Part shown: piece after piece, positions 5,896 through 38,388 of the stretch
Layout: each line of letters starts with the position of its first letter
Numbering within the stretch: the first letter of the stretch is position 1
Origin: a virus
Reading direction: 5' to 3' (one strand)
IMG/VR virus record: IMGVR_UViG_3300045988_047143
Span: 1 to 40,780 of that record
DNA length: 40,780 nt
Made by a program: the position numbers and the translations under genes
The notes under the pieces: generated by a model
What the model was told of the DNA's origin: nothing
The model's database searches: none
The model's input: only the letters and a program-made list of their open reading frames with translations

Positions 5896-6713
5896 CACTC
5901 CCAGGAAGGTTTGAATCGGCACGTCACAGCAGACGCGCCGGACTGTTTGACCTGCAGCGTGTAGCTGCAGGAATCGACGGCAGGCCACACCTGCAACGGT
6001 TCGCCCGTCCAGTCGACGCCGGACGTCACATCCGTGCCGCCAGTCCAAGCGTTATCGCCGTCTGCGGTCCACGCGCGCCGATTACCGGTATCAAGATAAA
6101 GATTCGACGCATTCGACCCGTTCCACTTGATATCCGTGCCGGTCACCGGGTCGGACACGGTCGCGGACGACACGTTAGAAAAACGAAGGATGAGATTAAG
6201 CAGCGGAGCGTTGGAATCCCATCCCTCACTGCCGGTCTCCGCGTTGCCGTGAAGGAAGACGCCGCCGGAAGCGGGAAGCGTGGCAGTCTGCCAATCACCC
6301 TGCCAAAACACGTCAGGCAGTTGGAAGACCGCCGTGGCGGCACGATGATCGCTCCACGGTATCTCGTCACCGTCCGGCTGACATGACGTGCACACAGCGC
6401 TAGCGGTCATGCGGCGCGTACGACCGGTGGACGTGTCACGCTCCACGCGGGTCAGAGACGATGCGAGACGGCAAAGACGATAGAACCGGTGCATGAGCGC
6501 GTCCGCGTTTAGCCCATCGGTGATGAATTTGAGCGTGATTTCTGGCGCGTCGAAAGCCACTGGACCGGGCGGAAGCATCACACCACTCCTGCCATTCACG
6601 CTGACCGAATCGATGCGAGGGCTGATGCTCGTGAAATGGGTGGTGCCGACGATCAGACTCGCATGCTCACCGGTCAGCTGCTGACCATTGATGAGATAAT
6701 CCGTGAGAATCAT
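5895..6713 (-). CDS. Distal tail protein (Dit-like, siphovirus tail component), 272 aa
   Basis: Lies immediately downstream of the tape measure gene, with typical size and position. Confidence 0.75.
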   Translation of the reverse strand: MILTDYLINGQQLTGEHASLIVGTTHFTSISPRIDSVSVNGRSGVMLPPGPVAFDAPEITLKFITDGLNADALMHRFYRLCRLASSLTRVERDTSTGRTRRMTASAVCTSCQPDGDEIPWSDHRAATAVFQLPDVFWQGDWQTATLPASGGVFLHGNAETGSEGWDSNAPLLNLILRFSNVSSATVSDPVTGTDIKWNGSNASNLYLDTGNRRAWTADGDNAWTGGTDVTSGVDWTGEPLQVWPAVDSCSYTLQVKQSGASAVTCRFKPSWE

Positions 6714-6731
6714 TGCACCACCCTTTCCATG

Positions 6732-9700
6732 TCACCATTGCGGCATTGCCGCCGTCTGCAATTTCTGCTGCGTGCTAATGCTTGTCGGAGCGATCGCCGG
6801 ATAATTGAATGTCTGAGTGACGAAGGTGTTGCCACCGGAACCACCTGCCGGCGTCCCGTTCGTGACATTCGTCCTACCGGCCTTCGACCCGTCGACCTGC
6901 CCATCCACGTGCACGGTCATATCCTTCACGGCAGCCCGCACGCCTTCCAAGCCGGATCTGATGCCGTCGCTGACATCCTTGGCGACATTGGCTCCGAACG
7001 AGTCCCCGGCATCCGGCATCGACATTCCAGCAGTGTCGAACGCCACGTCGAAACCGCCGGACAGTCTTGCGTTCATTCCGTCGATGGTTTTCTGCACGCC
7101 ACGCCAACCATTTCTCAGACTTTTGTCAAAGCCCTGCATGATCGCCAAGCCAGCAGGCTTAAGCATCACCTTGTCGTAGCTGAGCGGACCCTTATGCCTG
7201 ACGATCCAATCGCCGATGCCACTCACAAAGCTCTTCACTCTGCCGAAAGCCGCCATCAAACCATTGAGCAGACCATTGATGATGCTCGCGCCAGCATTCC
7301 ACAGCCACGCGCCAGCACCGGCAAAGCAGCCCATGATGGCACTGCCGATGCCACCAAGGAAGCCAAGCACACCCTGCACGACACCATGCACGATCTGGCT
7401 GAAACCGTTCCATGCCTGCTGCCAATTGCCGTGAATCAGACCGGTCACCAGATTGATGACACCCTGGATCACATTGACAATGCCGCTGACAACCGAAGCG
7501 ATTCCACTGATGACGCCCTGAATGAACGGCAGCATGGCCTGCACGGTCGGCAGAAGCGTCGTGCCGATGAAACCGACGATCGCGGAAATGATGCCGGACA
7601 CGAGCGGAACCAACGCCTGAATCACGGGCATAAGCGCTTGAATCACACCAGAAACAATCTGGCCCACACCCTCCACAAGTGGTGCGAGTCCTTGGATCAA
7701 TGGCGTGATGGCATCCACCATGCCGGTCACCAGACCGCTGATCTGCGAAATCACAGGTGTAAGCGCCTGCACCACAGCCGTGACCACGGTGATGACGCCT
7801 TGGATGACAGGCACCAAAACGCCCACCAAGGCGGAGATTATCGGCGTCAGCAACGGGATTATCTGACCGATCACATTCGTGATCACCGGCATGACCGCCT
7901 GCACCAGCTGATTCAGAGCGTCCATGAGCGTCTTTATCGACGGTTGGAGCGTCTGGAAAGCCTGCTTGAGGCTGTCAAGGACGCCGGTGAGCATCGTCCC
8001 GAATTCGCTGCGCAGTTGCGGGCTTGTGGCGATAAGAGCTCCGATCATCGCGATGATGATGCCTATCGGCGAAGCCAATCCTCCAAGCAAGCCGGTCAAA
8101 GGCTTAAGCATGCCGCCGACAAGCGGAATGTTAGCCAGCAATCCACCGAAACCGCCGGCGCCCAACGCGGCCAAAGCGGCTGCGACGGGGGCGATGATCC
8201 CGCCAAAATCCGAAAAAACGCCACGAACGGCGTTGACGGCATTCTGGAAAGGAGCCGGCAAAGTCGACACAAGAGTGTCGAACATTCCAGGAATCGCATG
8301 AACGAAACTCTTGATGATGACACCGACGCGAGGAATCACATTCTTAGCCGCAGCCATCACCGAGTTCACGAGATTCTGCGTGACCGCATCCATGTCCGCG
8401 TCGCTTTTGCCAAGCTCGGCAAGCCAATTCGTCCAAGCGGCCTTCATCGCGCTGACCGACCCCTCGATCGTCGACGCGGCCTCACGAGCAGTAGTGCCAG
8501 CGATATGCTGCTTCTCCTGGATCTGCTGAATCGCCTGAATCACATCAGCGAACGAATCGATGCTCAGATTGGAAGCCTCACCGTTCGCCGCCCCCCACTC
8601 GTTGGCGTCCTTGATAAGACGTTCCATCTCCTCATTGGTACCACCGTAGCCAAGTTTGAGATTGTCGAGCATCGTGTAATTCTGCTTCGCGAAACCGTTG
8701 AACGCGTTCTGCACGTCCGTCGCGCTGCTGCCGAAAGTGTTGATGTTGTCGGACATGGCGCGCATCGCAACGTCGGTCATGTCGGCGGCCTTCTTGGTGT
8801 CGCCGCCAAGAGCGTTGATCAAAGCCGCGGAAAAGCTCGTAGCCTGCTCCATGTACGCGTTCGCGCTCATGCCGCTGGTCTTCCACGCATTCTGCGCGTT
8901 CGCCATCACGGTCTTCTGCGCCGCCTCGTTGCGTTCCCAGTCGGCACGCACCGATTCCGCGCTCTTCCCGGCCTGCTTGGCATAATCGTCCAAAGACATG
9001 CCCATATTGCCGTAAAGTTTCGCGACGCCACCGCTCAGCTGCTCGTAATCACTGTAGCTTTGGAACGCCTGCTTGCCGAAATCGACAAGCTTCGCACTGA
9101 CGGCGGCAATGCCGACGCCGACGGCAGTGACCACGCCTGTCGCCATGTTTTTGACATGTTCGACGGCCTTTGACGAGATTTCCCCGAACTTCTCTCCAAC
9201 ATTCGAAGCGAAACTACCGACAGTCTTGCCGATAGAGGCGAACCCACTGCCAAAAGCGGAGACGGTGGACCTTACCCCTGCCGGCAGACCATCCCACATG
9301 CGTCCTAAAGCGCCCTTGACGGCACCGGCGGTTTCTGACGCGACTGACTTGACGCCGCCGAAAGCGCCTCGTATGACTGTCGTCGCGCCGGTGAACGCCC
9401 CACCAACCGACTTTGCGGCCGAGCCAATCGATTTCACGGCAGAGCCGACCAGAGGAATCTTCTGCACAAGTCCGGAAACACCGGAACCGATGGTCGAAAA
9501 ACCAGTCTTGAACGCGTTCGCGGCGGCACCGAAACCAGTAGCGGACTTAGAGGACTGCGCCGCCAATTCGGCTTCAAGATTCTTCAGACGTTCCTTGGCG
9601 CCCTTCAGATTCTCGGTCGACGCTTTCAGGGTGTCGGCTGCTGTCTGCTGTTTCAGCTCGGCTTGCTGCAGTCTGATCGCCGCGGCCTGCGCCTGAGTGG

Positions 9701-31138: not shown

Positions 31139-31259
31139 CTCGTTTTTCCTTTCGACGGTTTTAATCTATGCAAATTCGTAGATTTAGACTATGAATTTGC
31201 ATAGTTCTTTACAATTTGTACACATTGACTACGTAATTGGCTATACTGGAGGCATGGGT
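31139..31259. promoter_or_regulatory. Divergent lysis/lysogeny switch region with a 10-bp inverted-repeat operator
   Basis: ATGCAAATTC-N15-GAATTTGCAT at 31168-31202. TATACT lies at 31242-31247 just upstream of the repressor start. The region is AT-rich. Confidence 0.65.
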
Positions 31260-31616
31260 ATGAAAGCAAACGAAGTGACCGCATTCGCAAAACAGGTCAT
31301 GCGAGAGTGCGTCAGGCTTCAAAAGCAAAGCGGCATGACCATCAAGGAATTCACCAAGGCTTGCGGCTTCGGCGAGGACTACTGGTACAAACGGCAGAAC
31401 TTCACGCGCCCGCTCAATCTGAGTGACCTGGAACGCATCAGCGAAGTGACCGGCGTACCCATCGGAGACATCGTGATGGACTCCAAACGCCATGCGGTCG
31501 AAGCCGCCGAGAGGAAAGCGCAGGCAGGCGGCTATGGTCTTGCCGCCTATAACACAGCGGGCAAGCAGGAGGCCATCGATGGAGAGGCTGGGCCAGATTA
31601 CGACGAGCCTGCCTGA
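31260..31616 (+). CDS. Phage repressor, XRE-family HTH without a peptidase domain (ImmR-like), 118 aa
   Basis: MTIKEFTKACGFGEDYWYKRQN is an HTH. GGAGG lies 7 nt upstream of the ATG at 31260. It is followed by the ImmA-like gene. Confidence 0.8.
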   Translation: MKANEVTAFAKQVMRECVRLQKQSGMTIKEFTKACGFGEDYWYKRQNFTRPLNLSDLERISEVTGVPIGDIVMDSKRHAVEAAERKAQAGGYGLAAYNTAGKQEAIDGEAGPDYDEPA

Positions 31617-32031
31617 CCTGCCGATCGACCGGCGCATGACATACGGCGCCATGCGCCGCGCCATCATCGGCCTGCCTGTCACCGTATCCAGCGCCATCCT
31701 GCCGGACGGACTATGGGGTTGCTACGACGACGAAACCCGCGTCATCCTCATAGACCGTCGGCTCACTTATGCGGCGAAGCGCTGCACGTTGGTGCACGAG
31801 CTCTTGCATTGGCGGCACGGCGACACGTCATGTGGCCATGTGGCACAGAGTCGCGAGGAGCATAGGGCAAGACGCGAAACCGCCTTGACGCTGATAGACC
31901 CACTCCGCTACGGCATGCTCGAACAAATGTACGAGGGGAATTCGTGGAATATCGCCCAGGAACTGGAGGTGACCCAGCAGGTGCTCGGAGACTTCCGACT
32001 GGCAATGTCTGAGCGAGTCTGCATCATTTAA
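31579..32031 (+). CDS. ImmA/IrrE-family zinc metallopeptidase (anti-repressor protease), 150 aa
   Basis: HELLHWRHGD contains the HExxH motif. AGGAGG lies 7 nt upstream. It overlaps the repressor 3' end. Confidence 0.8.
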   Translation: MERLGQITTSLPDLPIDRRMTYGAMRRAIIGLPVTVSSAILPDGLWGCYDDETRVILIDRRLTYAAKRCTLVHELLHWRHGDTSCGHVAQSREEHRARRETALTLIDPLRYGMLEQMYEGNSWNIAQELEVTQQVLGDFRLAMSERVCII

Positions 32032-32062
32032 GCGATAGAACCAAGAAGAAGGGAGAATAACG

Positions 32063-33151
32063 ATGGAATTTGAAGAGAGCCTTAATCAGGTTGCGGCAAA
32101 GGTACGCGGCCTAAAGGATGGAATCGAGACCGAAGAAGCTACAAAGAACGCTTTTATCATGCCGTTCATCGGCCAGGTACTCGGTTATGACGTATTCAAT
32201 CCAACCGAAGTCGTGCCAGAATTCACCGCCGACGTTGGAGTCAAAAAAGGCGAAAAGGTCGATTACGCGCTCGTGCACGACGATCAAGTGCAGATTCTTA
32301 TCGAATGCAAGAAGATCGGCGTACCGCTCAGCTTGGAGAACGCAAGCCAGCTGTACCGGTATTTCGCGGTGACGAACGCGCGCATCGGCGTTCTGACCAA
32401 CGGCCAGGTATGGAATTTCTACATGGACATCGATGAACCGAACCGCATGGACTCGAAACCGTTCCTGGTGCTGGATCTATTGGATATCGACCCGACGATA
32501 ATCCCGGCGTTGCAGAAGCTGACCAAGCCGGCGTTCGACCTTGATTCCATCGCCAGCAGTGCCGAAGAGCTCAAATACGTGGGTGCACTCAAGAGGGCCG
32601 TCGGCGACGAGTTCAAAGAGCCGTCGGACGAATTCGTGAAGCTGCTCGCCTCGCACGTGTACGAAGGCGCGTTCTATGCGTCGGTCATGGAGAAGTTCAG
32701 GCCATTGGTGGCGAAGGCGCTGAAGCAGTATCTGTCAGATCAGGTCAACGATCGACTCAAGACGGCACTCGGCGCGGATGATATCAAGATCGACACAATC
32801 GAGCCAGACGCAAACGAGGAAACAAACGACGAAGACGAATCCAATGGCAACGACGACGATGGAATCGTCACCACCGAGGAGGAAATCGCCGGTTACCGAA
32901 TCATCAAAGCCATCGCATGCAGCGATGTGGATCCGGAACGTGTAACGATGAGAGACGCAAAGGGATACTGCGCAGTATTCCTCGACGATAACAACCGCAA
33001 GCCAATTGTTCGTCTTTATTTCAACACTAAGCAGAAATATCTCGGTGTTTTCGACGAAAACAAGAACTGCGAGCGTATGCCTATCGATACGCTTAATGGT
33101 ATCTATGCATACTCTGAGCAGATTCGCGAAGAGGTGCGCCGCCTTCTATAA
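32063..33151 (+). CDS. HsdR_N-type PD-(D/E)xK nuclease-domain protein with acidic linker and C-terminal domain, 362 aa
   Basis: The N-terminus ...EEATKNAFIMPFI...KVDYALVHDDQVQILIECKK...GVLTNGQVWNFY resembles the type I restriction HsdR N-terminal fold. AAGGGAG RBS. It is the third gene of the repressor operon. Confidence 0.7.
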   Translation: MEFEESLNQVAAKVRGLKDGIETEEATKNAFIMPFIGQVLGYDVFNPTEVVPEFTADVGVKKGEKVDYALVHDDQVQILIECKKIGVPLSLENASQLYRYFAVTNARIGVLTNGQVWNFYMDIDEPNRMDSKPFLVLDLLDIDPTIIPALQKLTKPAFDLDSIASSAEELKYVGALKRAVGDEFKEPSDEFVKLLASHVYEGAFYASVMEKFRPLVAKALKQYLSDQVNDRLKTALGADDIKIDTIEPDANEETNDEDESNGNDDDGIVTTEEEIAGYRIIKAIACSDVDPERVTMRDAKGYCAVFLDDNNRKPIVRLYFNTKQKYLGVFDENKNCERMPIDTLNGIYAYSEQIREEVRRLL

Positions 33152-33277
33152 CAGCATCATTGAAAACAGTTCGAGTCCCGATGTGCAGCTCAATGAATGT
33201 CGGGACTCTGCCTTAAAAGCTGTGCGCATTGGTGACGTGCAGACTCGAATCATCGCATAGCGTCATCAATGCTCTTT

Positions 33278-33301
33278 GCCCCACATTTGTGGGGCTTTTT
33301 T
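33278..33301 (+). terminator. Intrinsic terminator of the lysogeny operon
   Basis: GCCCCAC-ATTT-GTGGGGC followed by TTTTTT. Confidence 0.8.
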
Positions 33302-33408
33302 CATATGCGCTTATATTTAAGCCGGCTGGCCTGTAACGTGGGTAAGCGTTGATTTTCCGGCACATTCTCCTTATAAAAAGAATGTTAAAGCATGTATAGC
33401 TTATATAT

Positions 33409-33505
33409 GTGCAATCACAATTGCACCAAACGTCTCTACTTTCTCTTTTGCAATTTTACTCGCTGTGCAATTTGACTTTTACTTTCGAGTGCAATTACAA
33501 TGCAG
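33409..33505. repeat. Cluster of TGCAAT motifs (iteron/operator-like) in an AT-rich region upstream of 33610
   Basis: The palindrome GTGCAAT-caca-ATTGCAC lies at 33409-33426, with further TGCAAT copies at about 33449, 33466 and 33490. Confidence 0.6.
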
Positions 33506-33609
33506 TTATAAACGAAAAAGCCCCGACGCTGACCAGAGCAAATCGGGGCGACGGAAAACCAGCTAGATTCTCCATGCACCATTCTAAGGCAAAGCATGGA
33601 GGGAAAGAC

Positions 33610-34107
33610 ATGGAAGACATGGGATACCAGAACACGCAAGCCCTTTACGACCTAAACCGCACCGGACGCCTCGCCAAGAAGCGCGGAGACAACCTGACCT
33701 GCTACACCACTGCGCAACTCGCAATCTCCTTCATGTGCTCCATGACCTACGACTGGGACCGCGAACGCAACCAGCCGCCCGAGAAGCTGCGCAAGGTCAA
33801 CGCGCCATGCCGCTACTACACGCTCGGCTGGCGCGCCATCGCCGACGCATACGGCATGATTCTGCTCACGCCGGAGCAGTCCATGGGCGAGAATGCCGAT
33901 AAGGAGATGAAGAAGCGCGAGAACACAGTCAAGACGAACATAAGCAACGCCTGGCTGTTCCTCCAGGAGCGTGGTGTGATCAAAAAGCTGGAACCCGCTT
34001 CGCTCGGCAAGAACGCCGGCTTCCTGCTCCTGCTTGGCGACGACGAGGAGAATCGTGCGGTGGAACGGTGGGCGCGCCAATGCCTCAACCTGCCGATGGT
34101 CTGGTGA
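33610..34107 (+). CDS. Hypothetical wHTH-like DNA-binding protein, 165 aa
   Basis: Very high GC3. GGAGGG lies 6 nt before the ATG at 33610. The C-terminal ...NISNAWLFLQERGVIKKLEPASLGKNAGFLL looks like a winged helix. Confidence 0.65.
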   Translation: MEDMGYQNTQALYDLNRTGRLAKKRGDNLTCYTTAQLAISFMCSMTYDWDRERNQPPEKLRKVNAPCRYYTLGWRAIADAYGMILLTPEQSMGENADKEMKKRENTVKTNISNAWLFLQERGVIKKLEPASLGKNAGFLLLLGDDEENRAVERWARQCLNLPMVW

Positions 34108-37560: not shown

Positions 37561-38388
37561 TCATGCGAGGTTTTCGATGATCCGCTTCTCGTTTTCGCTG
37601 AGCGGCCATATGGTCACATCCTCCGCGGCCTTCAGTTCCGCGGCCTTCAGTTCCGCGGCCTTCAGTTCCGCGGCCTTCAGTTCCGCGGCCTTCAGTTCCG
37701 CCGCCTTGGCTCCGCTCAGGAGATAGCCGCTGCCGAAGATGGCCTTCCTCGCCGCCCTCTGCGAGTCAAGCGCCCGAATGAACGCCACATCCGAAGCCTT
37801 GACGCGGAAATCCACGCCAGCCTTGCCGACCTTATTCAGTCGTGCGACGGTCAACAATTCCGGCGGATACGCATACTTCGGCAGATGTTTCCTGCTTTCG
37901 CGCCTGACTCGTTTCACCGCATCGTTGACCAGCTTCGTCAGATCCGGTGCGGTGCGAATCAGGTCATCGCCGAAACTCGTCACGAAGCTGGTGTTGACGA
38001 TAGCGCCGTTGGCGTATTCGATCGCGCAATCAGTGACCAGCATATGCGCGCCGTTGCGCGACGTGCTGCTGAAAATCGTGAGGTTCGGAGCGAACAAGAA
38101 GAAAGGAATATGGTTGTCACGGTAGAACGTGCATATCTTCGATAGAATCGAGAAAGGTGGATTGTCCACCACCACCTTGCCGTCCGAATAGTCGAAACTC
38201 TCGTAGTCGCCGCCAGGATAGAAGGGGCGCACCACTTTGCTCGGGTCGATGCCATATTCGTGGCATGCCCAGTCCTTTATGGTCTCATACACTGCGGGGG
38301 GGGTGTAGCAGTCGTCCGTGGTCTTCTTATGTTTGAATTTGTCCACGAACGCATCATAATCGTCAATCGTCTGCTGTCTGATGCCCAT
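37561..38388 (-). CDS. Orphan N6-adenine DNA methyltransferase-like protein with C-terminal (AAELK)n repeat, 275 aa
   Basis: KTTDDCYTPPAVYETI...VVVDNPPFS...FFLFAPNLTIF gives motif IV NPPF and phage Dam-like organisation. The start MGIRQQ is at 38388. Confidence 0.75.
   Translation of the reverse strand: MGIRQQTIDDYDAFVDKFKHKKTTDDCYTPPAVYETIKDWACHEYGIDPSKVVRPFYPGGDYESFDYSDGKVVVDNPPFSILSKICTFYRDNHIPFFLFAPNLTIFSSTSRNGAHMLVTDCAIEYANGAIVNTSFVTSFGDDLIRTAPDLTKLVNDAVKRVRRESRKHLPKYAYPPELLTVARLNKVGKAGVDFRVKASDVAFIRALDSQRAARKAIFGSGYLLSGAKAAELKAAELKAAELKAAELKAAELKAAEDVTIWPLSENEKRIIENLA
37624..37713. repeat. 15-bp tandem repeat, 5 perfect units (37624-37698) plus one degenerate unit
   Basis: CGCGGCCTTCAGTTC x5, then CGCCGCCTTGGCTCC. 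It is in frame and encodes GAKAA(ELKAA)5. Confidence 0.95.

Follow-up and report, generated by a model that had tools for sequence, protein, structure and literature searches.

A solitary HsdR_N-type nuclease gene behind the repressor of a Bifidobacterium phage: exchangeable lysogeny-module cargo and candidate prophage defence gene

We analyzed a 40,780-nucleotide stretch of viral DNA (hereafter the window). The IMG/VR record to which it corresponds (IMGVR_UViG_3300045988_047143) is complete, carries direct terminal repeats and represents a temperate Bifidobacterium phage. Our subject is the plus-strand gene at 32063..33151, which encodes a solitary HsdR_N-type nuclease of 362 amino acids (aa) plus the stop codon, as defined by its open reading frame (ORF), its Pfam and PHROG matches and its homologues. 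This is the third gene of a plus-strand lysogeny operon, a position already described in the initial annotation, and the coordinates of all three genes were confirmed. The first gene (31260..31616, +), taken from the ORF list, encodes a 118-aa helix-turn-helix (HTH) repressor that matches Pfam only through HTH_26 and below threshold (E=0.0017), and the second (31579..32031, +) encodes an ImmA-like metallopeptidase with an HExxH motif (Peptidase_M78, E=3.1e-6). The ATG of the nuclease gene is the first start downstream of an in-frame stop; it lies behind a 31-nt gap from the ImmA end at 32031 and has its own ribosome-binding site, GAAGGGAG (32048..32055, +), read from the sequence 7 nt upstream. 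A terminator scan placed the end of the operon at an intrinsic terminator, GCCCCACA-TTTG-TGGGGC plus T6 (33278..33301, +), with a stem of 7 bp (6 G-C pairs) at 33278-33295 followed by T6. The ORF, the gap, the ribosome-binding site and the terminator were all as the initial annotation had given them. In a consensus scan, we found a promoter-like site upstream of the repressor (31219-31247), and neither promoter-like nor terminator-like sites on the plus strand from 31247 to 33278. Since no internal signal separates them, the repressor, ImmA and nuclease genes look like one transcription unit, and the nuclease is probably co-transcribed with the other two. Its immediate neighbours in the window are the ImmA gene and a 165-aa ORF. 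The nuclease gene has a GC content of 52% and a GC content at third codon positions (GC3) of 0.66, while the GC3 of the neighbouring genes is higher (0.70-0.83).

Regarding the nuclease domain (residues 1-140; 32063..32482, +), its definition rests on Pfam, conservation and fold matches. Both profiles that had been suggested as a check matched above their gathering thresholds: HSDR_N (PF04313) over residues 23-128 with E=9e-11, and HSDR_N_2 (PF13588) with E=3.2e-8. The catalytic residues fall in the motifs KVDYAL (residues 65-70, with D67) and IECKK (residues 80-84, with E81 and K83), and SQLYRY (residues 95-100) corresponds to the QxxxY motif of HsdR nucleases (Q96...Y100). The plus-strand codons of these residues are 32261-32263 for D67, 32303-32305 for E81, 32309-32311 for K83, 32348-32350 for Q96 and 32360-32362 for Y100. 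In an alignment of 122 diverse relatives, 38-58% identical to the query, E53, D67, L97, T112 and G114 are invariant, and E24, E25, K28, E81, K83, Q96, R99 and Y100 are conserved in at least 90% of the proteins, a pattern that shows the nuclease active site to be under selection. Sequence searches of the PDB, with either the single sequence or a profile of the 122 sequences, gave no significant match and hinted at most at a beta-spectrin PH domain (E=0.3) and Cas4 (E=1.1). A Foldseek search against the PDB returned as top matches the nuclease domain of DrdV (7lvv), a Vibrio HsdR fragment (3h1t), Cas4 (4r5q) and restriction-endonuclease-like proteins, all with probabilities of 0.99-1.0; the alignment covers just one third of the chain, which keeps the E-values modest (about 3e-3 to 1e-2). 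EcoR124I HsdR (2w00) was also among the fold matches of this domain. Profiles, motifs and fold thus bear out the assignment of the protein as an HsdR_N-type PD-(D/E)xK nuclease.

The initial annotation had also read a layout of nuclease, helical region with acidic stretch, and C-terminal domain from the sequence, and the AlphaFold2 model of the full protein, built on 49 sequences, reproduces it with a mean predicted local distance difference test score (pLDDT) of 85.4. The model comprises an alpha/beta part (residues 1-140), an all-helical middle domain (residues 144-235; 32492..32767, +) with pLDDT of about 85-93, a disordered segment (residues 239-267; 32777..32863, +) with pLDDT below 50, and a separate compact C-terminal domain (residues 272-361). 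The disordered segment is an acidic tether that includes the run NEETNDEDESNGNDDDG (residues 251-267). Tethers of the family are 14-41 aa long; their median D/E content is 30% and their median net charge is -5. Their character is conserved and their sequence is not. One could argue from this conserved, disordered acidic tract that the protein is an inactive nuclease, working as a DNA-binding regulator or as a DNA-mimic decoy that interferes with host restriction. However, all the catalytic positions are conserved, the HsdR-specific QxxxY included, and the tract is unstructured and has just 14-41 residues, which leaves this explanation very improbable.

The C-terminal domain, which we delimited to residues 268-362 (32864..33148, +) from a stand-alone domain model and its conserved motifs, is the most conserved part of the protein outside the active site. 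Its motifs are TTxEE, R..RD..SY and LLDDNNRKPI.RL.FN. Modelled alone, it shows an alpha-beta5-alpha topology with a pLDDT of 93.4 and a predicted template modelling score (pTM) of 0.84. Fold searches of the PDB and BFVD gave no match to it at E<=0.001, and no Pfam family covers it. The best structural matches were YkuJ (E=0.11), frataxin-like alpha-beta sandwiches (template modelling score, TM, of about 0.46) and PH-like folds; because all of them have TM below 0.5, we claim no fold family for this domain. Structure prediction, which had been proposed for both terminal domains, therefore recognised the fold of the nuclease and produced a C-terminal domain without a significant structural match.

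The nuclease belongs to PHROG 4225, a catalogued family named 'endonuclease', which it matches over its full length (E=5.5e-123, residues 1-360 of 362 against profile positions 2-353 of 357). More than 8000 homologues with the same length and architecture were scored in a set of 5.8 billion proteins, and the matches at E<=1e-30 comprise 1125 clusters (50% identity), nearly all of about 360 aa. Homologues carry source or NCBI names such as 'type I restriction endonuclease' or 'type I restriction enzyme HsdR N-terminal domain-containing protein'. The 362-aa protein has no Pfam match to a helicase even at E<=1, and neither HsdS, HsdM nor a helicase is adjacent to it in the window. Neighbours elsewhere were tallied by the Pfam families of the genes immediately beside 75 or more chromosomal and 77 viral loci, with heuristic gene calls. 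No N6_Mtase or Methylase_S family, nor any other DNA methyltransferase, recurs among the 150 chromosomal or 153 viral neighbours, and no conserved partner gene of any kind emerged from these tallies. Hence, the family names notwithstanding, the nuclease is not a type I R subunit: it lacks the helicase motor, nearby hsdM or hsdS genes and a conserved partner. That it stands alone, without an adjoining helicase/ATPase, specificity subunit or methyltransferase, had been stated for the window and extends to the neighbours of its homologues.

Rare fusions exist in the family. Three proteins have an N-terminal TerD domain (P0125, P0187 and P0216), one has a C-terminal RAMA domain (P0122), and in P0134, P0124 and P0241 the C-terminus is extended by about 110 aa, with a GTDx(Y/F)xETNLS motif in common and a weak match to SeqA_C. 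TerD, RAMA and SeqA_C-like add-on domains belong to restriction- and stress-associated contexts.

The initial annotation had raised a split relationship between the nuclease and a methyltransferase encoded at 37561-38388 on the minus strand, 4.4 kb away. In such a restriction-modification pair, the phage's adenine-methyltransferase-like gene would keep the nuclease harmless. In favour of this idea, both genes are in the same phage, and the product of 37561-38388 has, by eye, NPPF and CYTPP motifs, as N6-adenine methyltransferases typically do. Its description as a methyltransferase stands as far as these motifs go; in Pfam, the protein had no methyltransferase match at E<=1e-3, and only its (ELKAA)n repeat matches anything. 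Against the pairing, the two genes occur independently. A homologue of the NPPF gene is present in three of five complete sister phages without the nuclease, which makes it a variable gene, and it is missing from every one of five phages whose nuclease is 85-98% identical and whose completeness is 93-100%. Besides, no methyltransferase is recurrent next to homologues, and none lies beside the E. coli copy. Independent inheritance of the two genes makes a split restriction-modification pair very unlikely, and together with the neighbour tallies it leads us to consider the idea extremely improbable; the proposed relationship was not borne out.

To describe how the locus varies, we used 80 viral contigs with a 70-97% identical ImmA, of which 68 have a complete interval from ImmA to the homologue of the ORF at 33610-34107. 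Only one of the 68 (L176) holds the nuclease in this slot; the other 67 hold alternative cargo. On the left, homology between the slot variants extends through the ImmA stop and a common ribosome-binding site, and in two sister phages (L199 and L183) the ORF of the alternative cargo also has a similar GAAGGGAG in front of it. On the right, homology to the sister phages resumes at about 33369, where the conserved leader of the next gene (33369..33609, +; gene at 33610-34107) forms the flank. The cargo slot is therefore precisely defined, with the ImmA gene as its left flank and limits at 32036 and about 33368, and it is a natural place to seek further exclusion genes in Bifidobacterium phages. 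In 41 of the 68 intervals, the cargo is a minus-strand, membrane-anchored DEDDh (RNase_T) exonuclease that resembles PDC-S48, a candidate family of PADLOC (6e-29). Other cargo includes a 200-aa lipoprotein, membrane-anchored coiled-coil proteins of 204-212 aa, and ORFs of 257-260, 139 and 96 aa; the lipoprotein, the coiled-coil proteins and the 257-260-aa proteins have no Pfam family. In kind, the lipoprotein and the membrane proteins correspond to typical products of superinfection-exclusion genes.

The census bears directly on the possibility that the nuclease is a tool of the phage life cycle, acting in excision, recombination or replication processing, or in the degradation of host DNA upon induction. 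PD-(D/E)xK nucleases do serve recombination in many phages, the gene lies near int and attP, and some relatives are near RecT or exonuclease modules. However, the gene is dispensable, as unrelated cargo takes its place in 67 of the 68 sister phages that share the ImmA, and this speaks against a life-cycle role. It is also oriented with the repressor rather than with the early lytic genes, and lone copies are found outside prophages, in an E. coli islet by aldB and on plasmids. We regard a life-cycle function as unlikely.

The limits of the element itself came from a second phage backbone. By blastn of the loci against the window, three contigs (L096, L099 and L100) share with it only the segment 32036..33220, at 88-96% DNA identity, plus one 80-nt piece. 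Their gene order is HTH repressor, nuclease and tyrosine integrase. As this segment is nearly the sole DNA common to the two backbones, the nuclease gene behaves as a discrete mobile element, a cassette of about 1.19 kb exchanged among lysogeny modules. A discrete 1.19-kb block common to unrelated phage backbones at 95% DNA identity is also what one would expect of a selfish cassette that spreads or persists in a homing-like or addiction-like manner, with any host benefit incidental. The patchy distribution across phyla at 50-60% identity, a GC3 atypical of the neighbouring genes and the existence of a broken copy with an in-frame stop (L081) point the same way. Against it, the many different intergenic insertion contexts lack a single conserved target, a diversity that speaks against homing, and there is no antitoxin-like partner. 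Moreover, a slot common to many unrelated cargo genes fits recombination at conserved flanks, not homing driven by the nuclease. Selfish spread, too, is in our judgement an improbable account of the gene.

Placement behind a repressor is not restricted to Bifidobacterium phages. An annotated order of repressor, (ImmA), nuclease, (further genes) and integrase is found in Streptococcus IPP25, Enterococcus EG-TP1, Fusobacterium FNU_1P and Lacticaseibacillus P7.1, and Corynebacterium Juicebox shows a slight variation of the repressor-nuclease-integrase order. In a gut prophage, CI is followed by the nuclease, a 375-aa ORF and host genes. A relative turned up in at least 514 IMG/VR contigs. Of the contigs that are 20 kb or longer, 60% have the gene no more than 5 kb from one end, versus 30% expected. 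Immediately upstream, among the 77 viral loci, we found Peptidase_S24 in 20, HTH_3 in 15, HTH_26 in 11 and Peptidase_M78 in 5. Downstream genes of the viral loci include integrases (6) and the accessory or defence-type families Abi_2, RhuM, DUF3644, EC042_2821, DUF4365 and T5orf172. A survey of homologues for the same position thus revealed repeated placement behind a repressor in viral contigs of several phyla. The gene presents several of the traits by which prophage morons are recognised, namely location in the lysogeny module, co-orientation with the repressor, a terminator of its own, and presence or absence among close phages that carry alternative cargo. The argument from position made in the initial annotation is strengthened by these data, with the gene as optional cargo of a hypervariable slot and as a cassette common to unrelated backbones, often directly behind the repressor.

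Relatives are also found on chromosomes and plasmids. There are 47 plasmid records with a relative; 9 of 151 Bifidobacterium species genomes (6%) have one copy, and so do the chromosomes of 190 of 5426 complete E. coli genomes (3.5%). The E. coli orthologue, WP_000061477.1, is a lone gene adjoining hicAB, between a GH127 gene and aldB, with no methyltransferase adjacent. In 80 genomes of Actinomycetota and Pseudomonadota, the 150 immediate neighbours span 166 Pfam families, none of them recurrent. The GC3 of chromosomal copies is mostly below that of the neighbouring genes, which fits acquired DNA. These copies bear on a role in lysogenic conversion, in which the substrates of the nuclease would be damaged host DNA or unusual structures in it, and the gene would favour DNA repair or stress tolerance. 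Very high conservation across phyla would suit such a role, as would the many chromosomal copies with housekeeping-type neighbours and the TerD fusions, which tie some members to Ter stress-response systems. Nevertheless, the distribution is sparse and accessory, as the percentages given above for Bifidobacterium and E. coli show, the gene is found preferentially in the lysogeny modules of prophages and at their ends, and some relatives have restriction-associated add-ons such as RAMA. We therefore think a repair or stress function quite unlikely.

Taking these data together, we lean, with moderate confidence, towards the gene being an exchangeable prophage moron: a self-contained cassette for a solitary PD-(D/E)xK nuclease that would be made in the lysogen and would most likely attack incoming foreign DNA. 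We favour defence because an intact active site is combined with optional cargo status in an exclusion-type slot and with the same arrangement behind the repressor across several phyla. In the mechanism that we propose, the nuclease would be read from the repressor promoter and hence be made in the lysogen, and its targets would be the DNA of superinfecting phages and possibly plasmids. The HsdR-type N-terminal domain would cut this DNA, while the helical domain and the C-terminal domain, linked through the flexible acidic tether, may limit when or on what cutting occurs. Resident DNA could be spared in three ways. The protein might recognise, in a type IV-like manner, a feature absent from resident DNA, such as a base modification; this option fits the lack of a cognate methylase and the RAMA or SeqA_C-like domains appended to some relatives. 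It might instead recognise free DNA ends or other structures of entering genomes. Or the acidic tether and the C-terminal domain might keep the enzyme auto-inhibited until infection releases it. All three options fit the anatomy of the protein, and we prefer none of them.

Several observations weigh against the defence interpretation. The fold searches of the PDB and BFVD gave the C-terminal domain no recognisable modified-base reader fold. PADLOC 2.0.0 has no family for the nuclease and gave only weak partial matches (the N-terminal domain of REase_MTase_IIG at 1.4e-4 and PDC-M03A at 0.032); NCBIfam gave no match either. Full-text literature searching found no functional study of, or experiment on, the family, so that PHROG 4225 is a catalogued family without a functional study in the searchable literature. 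Papers that mention COG4748, a category to which the family may correspond, do no more than name it among restriction endonucleases found on mobile elements. The 50-60% identity between phyla is unusually high conservation for a defence gene. Finally, many homologues of Actinomycetota and Pseudomonas sit in ordinary-looking chromosomal contexts, with no recurrent phage or defence neighbours.

A wider proposal follows the same lines, and we put it forward tentatively, as a possibility that we still find rather doubtful. PHROG 4225 could be a widespread, unrecognised single-gene anti-phage system, in which the tethered C-terminal domain is a new kind of sensor or auto-inhibitor of an HsdR-type nuclease and whose cassette is traded behind repressors by temperate phages of at least four phyla. 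If this were true, a compact one-gene immune module missed by current defence catalogues would be present in more than 500 viral contigs and thousands of bacterial proteins, and the C-terminal domain with its acidic tether would represent a new control of a restriction-type nuclease that has no methyltransferase. If the gene does not serve defence, it is merely another annotated 'endonuclease'. What the window contributes in either case is the slot census with its list of cargo, the edges of the cassette, the decoupling of the nuclease from the NPPF gene, the character of the tether and the model of the C-terminal domain.

In order to contextualize the protein, we compared it with known systems. 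With type I R subunits (2w00 and 3h1t) and the type IIL enzyme DrdV (7lvv) it shares the PD-(D/E)xK fold and the combination of D...ExK with QxxxY. It differs from them in lacking a superfamily 2 (SF2) helicase/translocase, HsdM, HsdS and a fused methyltransferase, and it has instead the helical domain, the acidic tether and an unrelated 95-aa C-terminal domain. Type IV enzymes such as Mrr, DpnI, MspJI and PvuRts1I are similar as solitary PD-(D/E)xK nucleases with no cognate methyltransferase and with a separate small domain that possibly chooses the target, although the C-terminal domain described here showed no similarity to winged-helix, SRA or EVE readers in the fold searches. Shedu (SduA, DUF4263) is likewise a one-gene PD-(D/E)xK defence nuclease, with an extra domain thought to gate its core; the nuclease of the window has no match to the Shedu models of PADLOC, and both the nuclease subfamily and the accessory domains differ.

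Prophage exclusion genes linked to a repressor include rexAB next to cI in lambda, sieB in P22, BstA in Salmonella BTP1 and Ltp in S. thermophilus TP-J34. For these genes, exclusion of other phages has been proposed or shown. They resemble the nuclease gene in their location with the repressor in the lysogeny module and in their variability among related phages, and a further likeness would be expression in the lysogen, which the operon structure suggests here. Their proteins are unrelated, and none is an HsdR_N nuclease with this C-terminal domain. In the Thermus phage IN93, the stretch from a LexA-like regulator to the integrase is variable and encodes a type IV-like endonuclease (PMC11437467), and an analogous argument was made there from the variable regulator-integrase region, for an unrelated protein.

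A few observations concern individual loci. The DEDDh cargo protein of the slot (for example L183:4840-5661, minus strand) has about 260-274 aa and two N-terminal transmembrane helices, and is a further exclusion candidate in its own right. Other alternatives in the slot include the lipoprotein (L220:4483-5085, +), a membrane-anchored coiled-coil protein (L234:4479-5093, +) and a protein of the 257-260-aa kind (L234:5254-6027, -). Different cargoes end at near-identical terminator hairpins (CCCCACA-loop-TGTGGGG plus a T-run), located at 33278-33295 in the window, at about 4800 in L199 and at about 5130 in L220, and these common terminators might also serve as recombination points. The hicA-hicB pair was considered as a conserved partner, as it lies beside the homologue in E. 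coli (WP4-S18-ESBL-07, L174:7846-10010) and in a Porphyromonas gingivalis phage (L002:3244-5071); it is not recurrent elsewhere, and the adjacency is probably a coincidence within accessory islets. The homologue of Pseudomonas sp. TTU2014-080ASC (L081:6001-7077), interrupted by its in-frame stop, is probably a pseudogene. In the Bifidobacterium provirus L102, the nuclease is followed by a defence-type neighbour (6243-7730, +), whose 496-aa product combines DUF4041 with T5orf172/MUG113 (GIY-YIG-like) domains.

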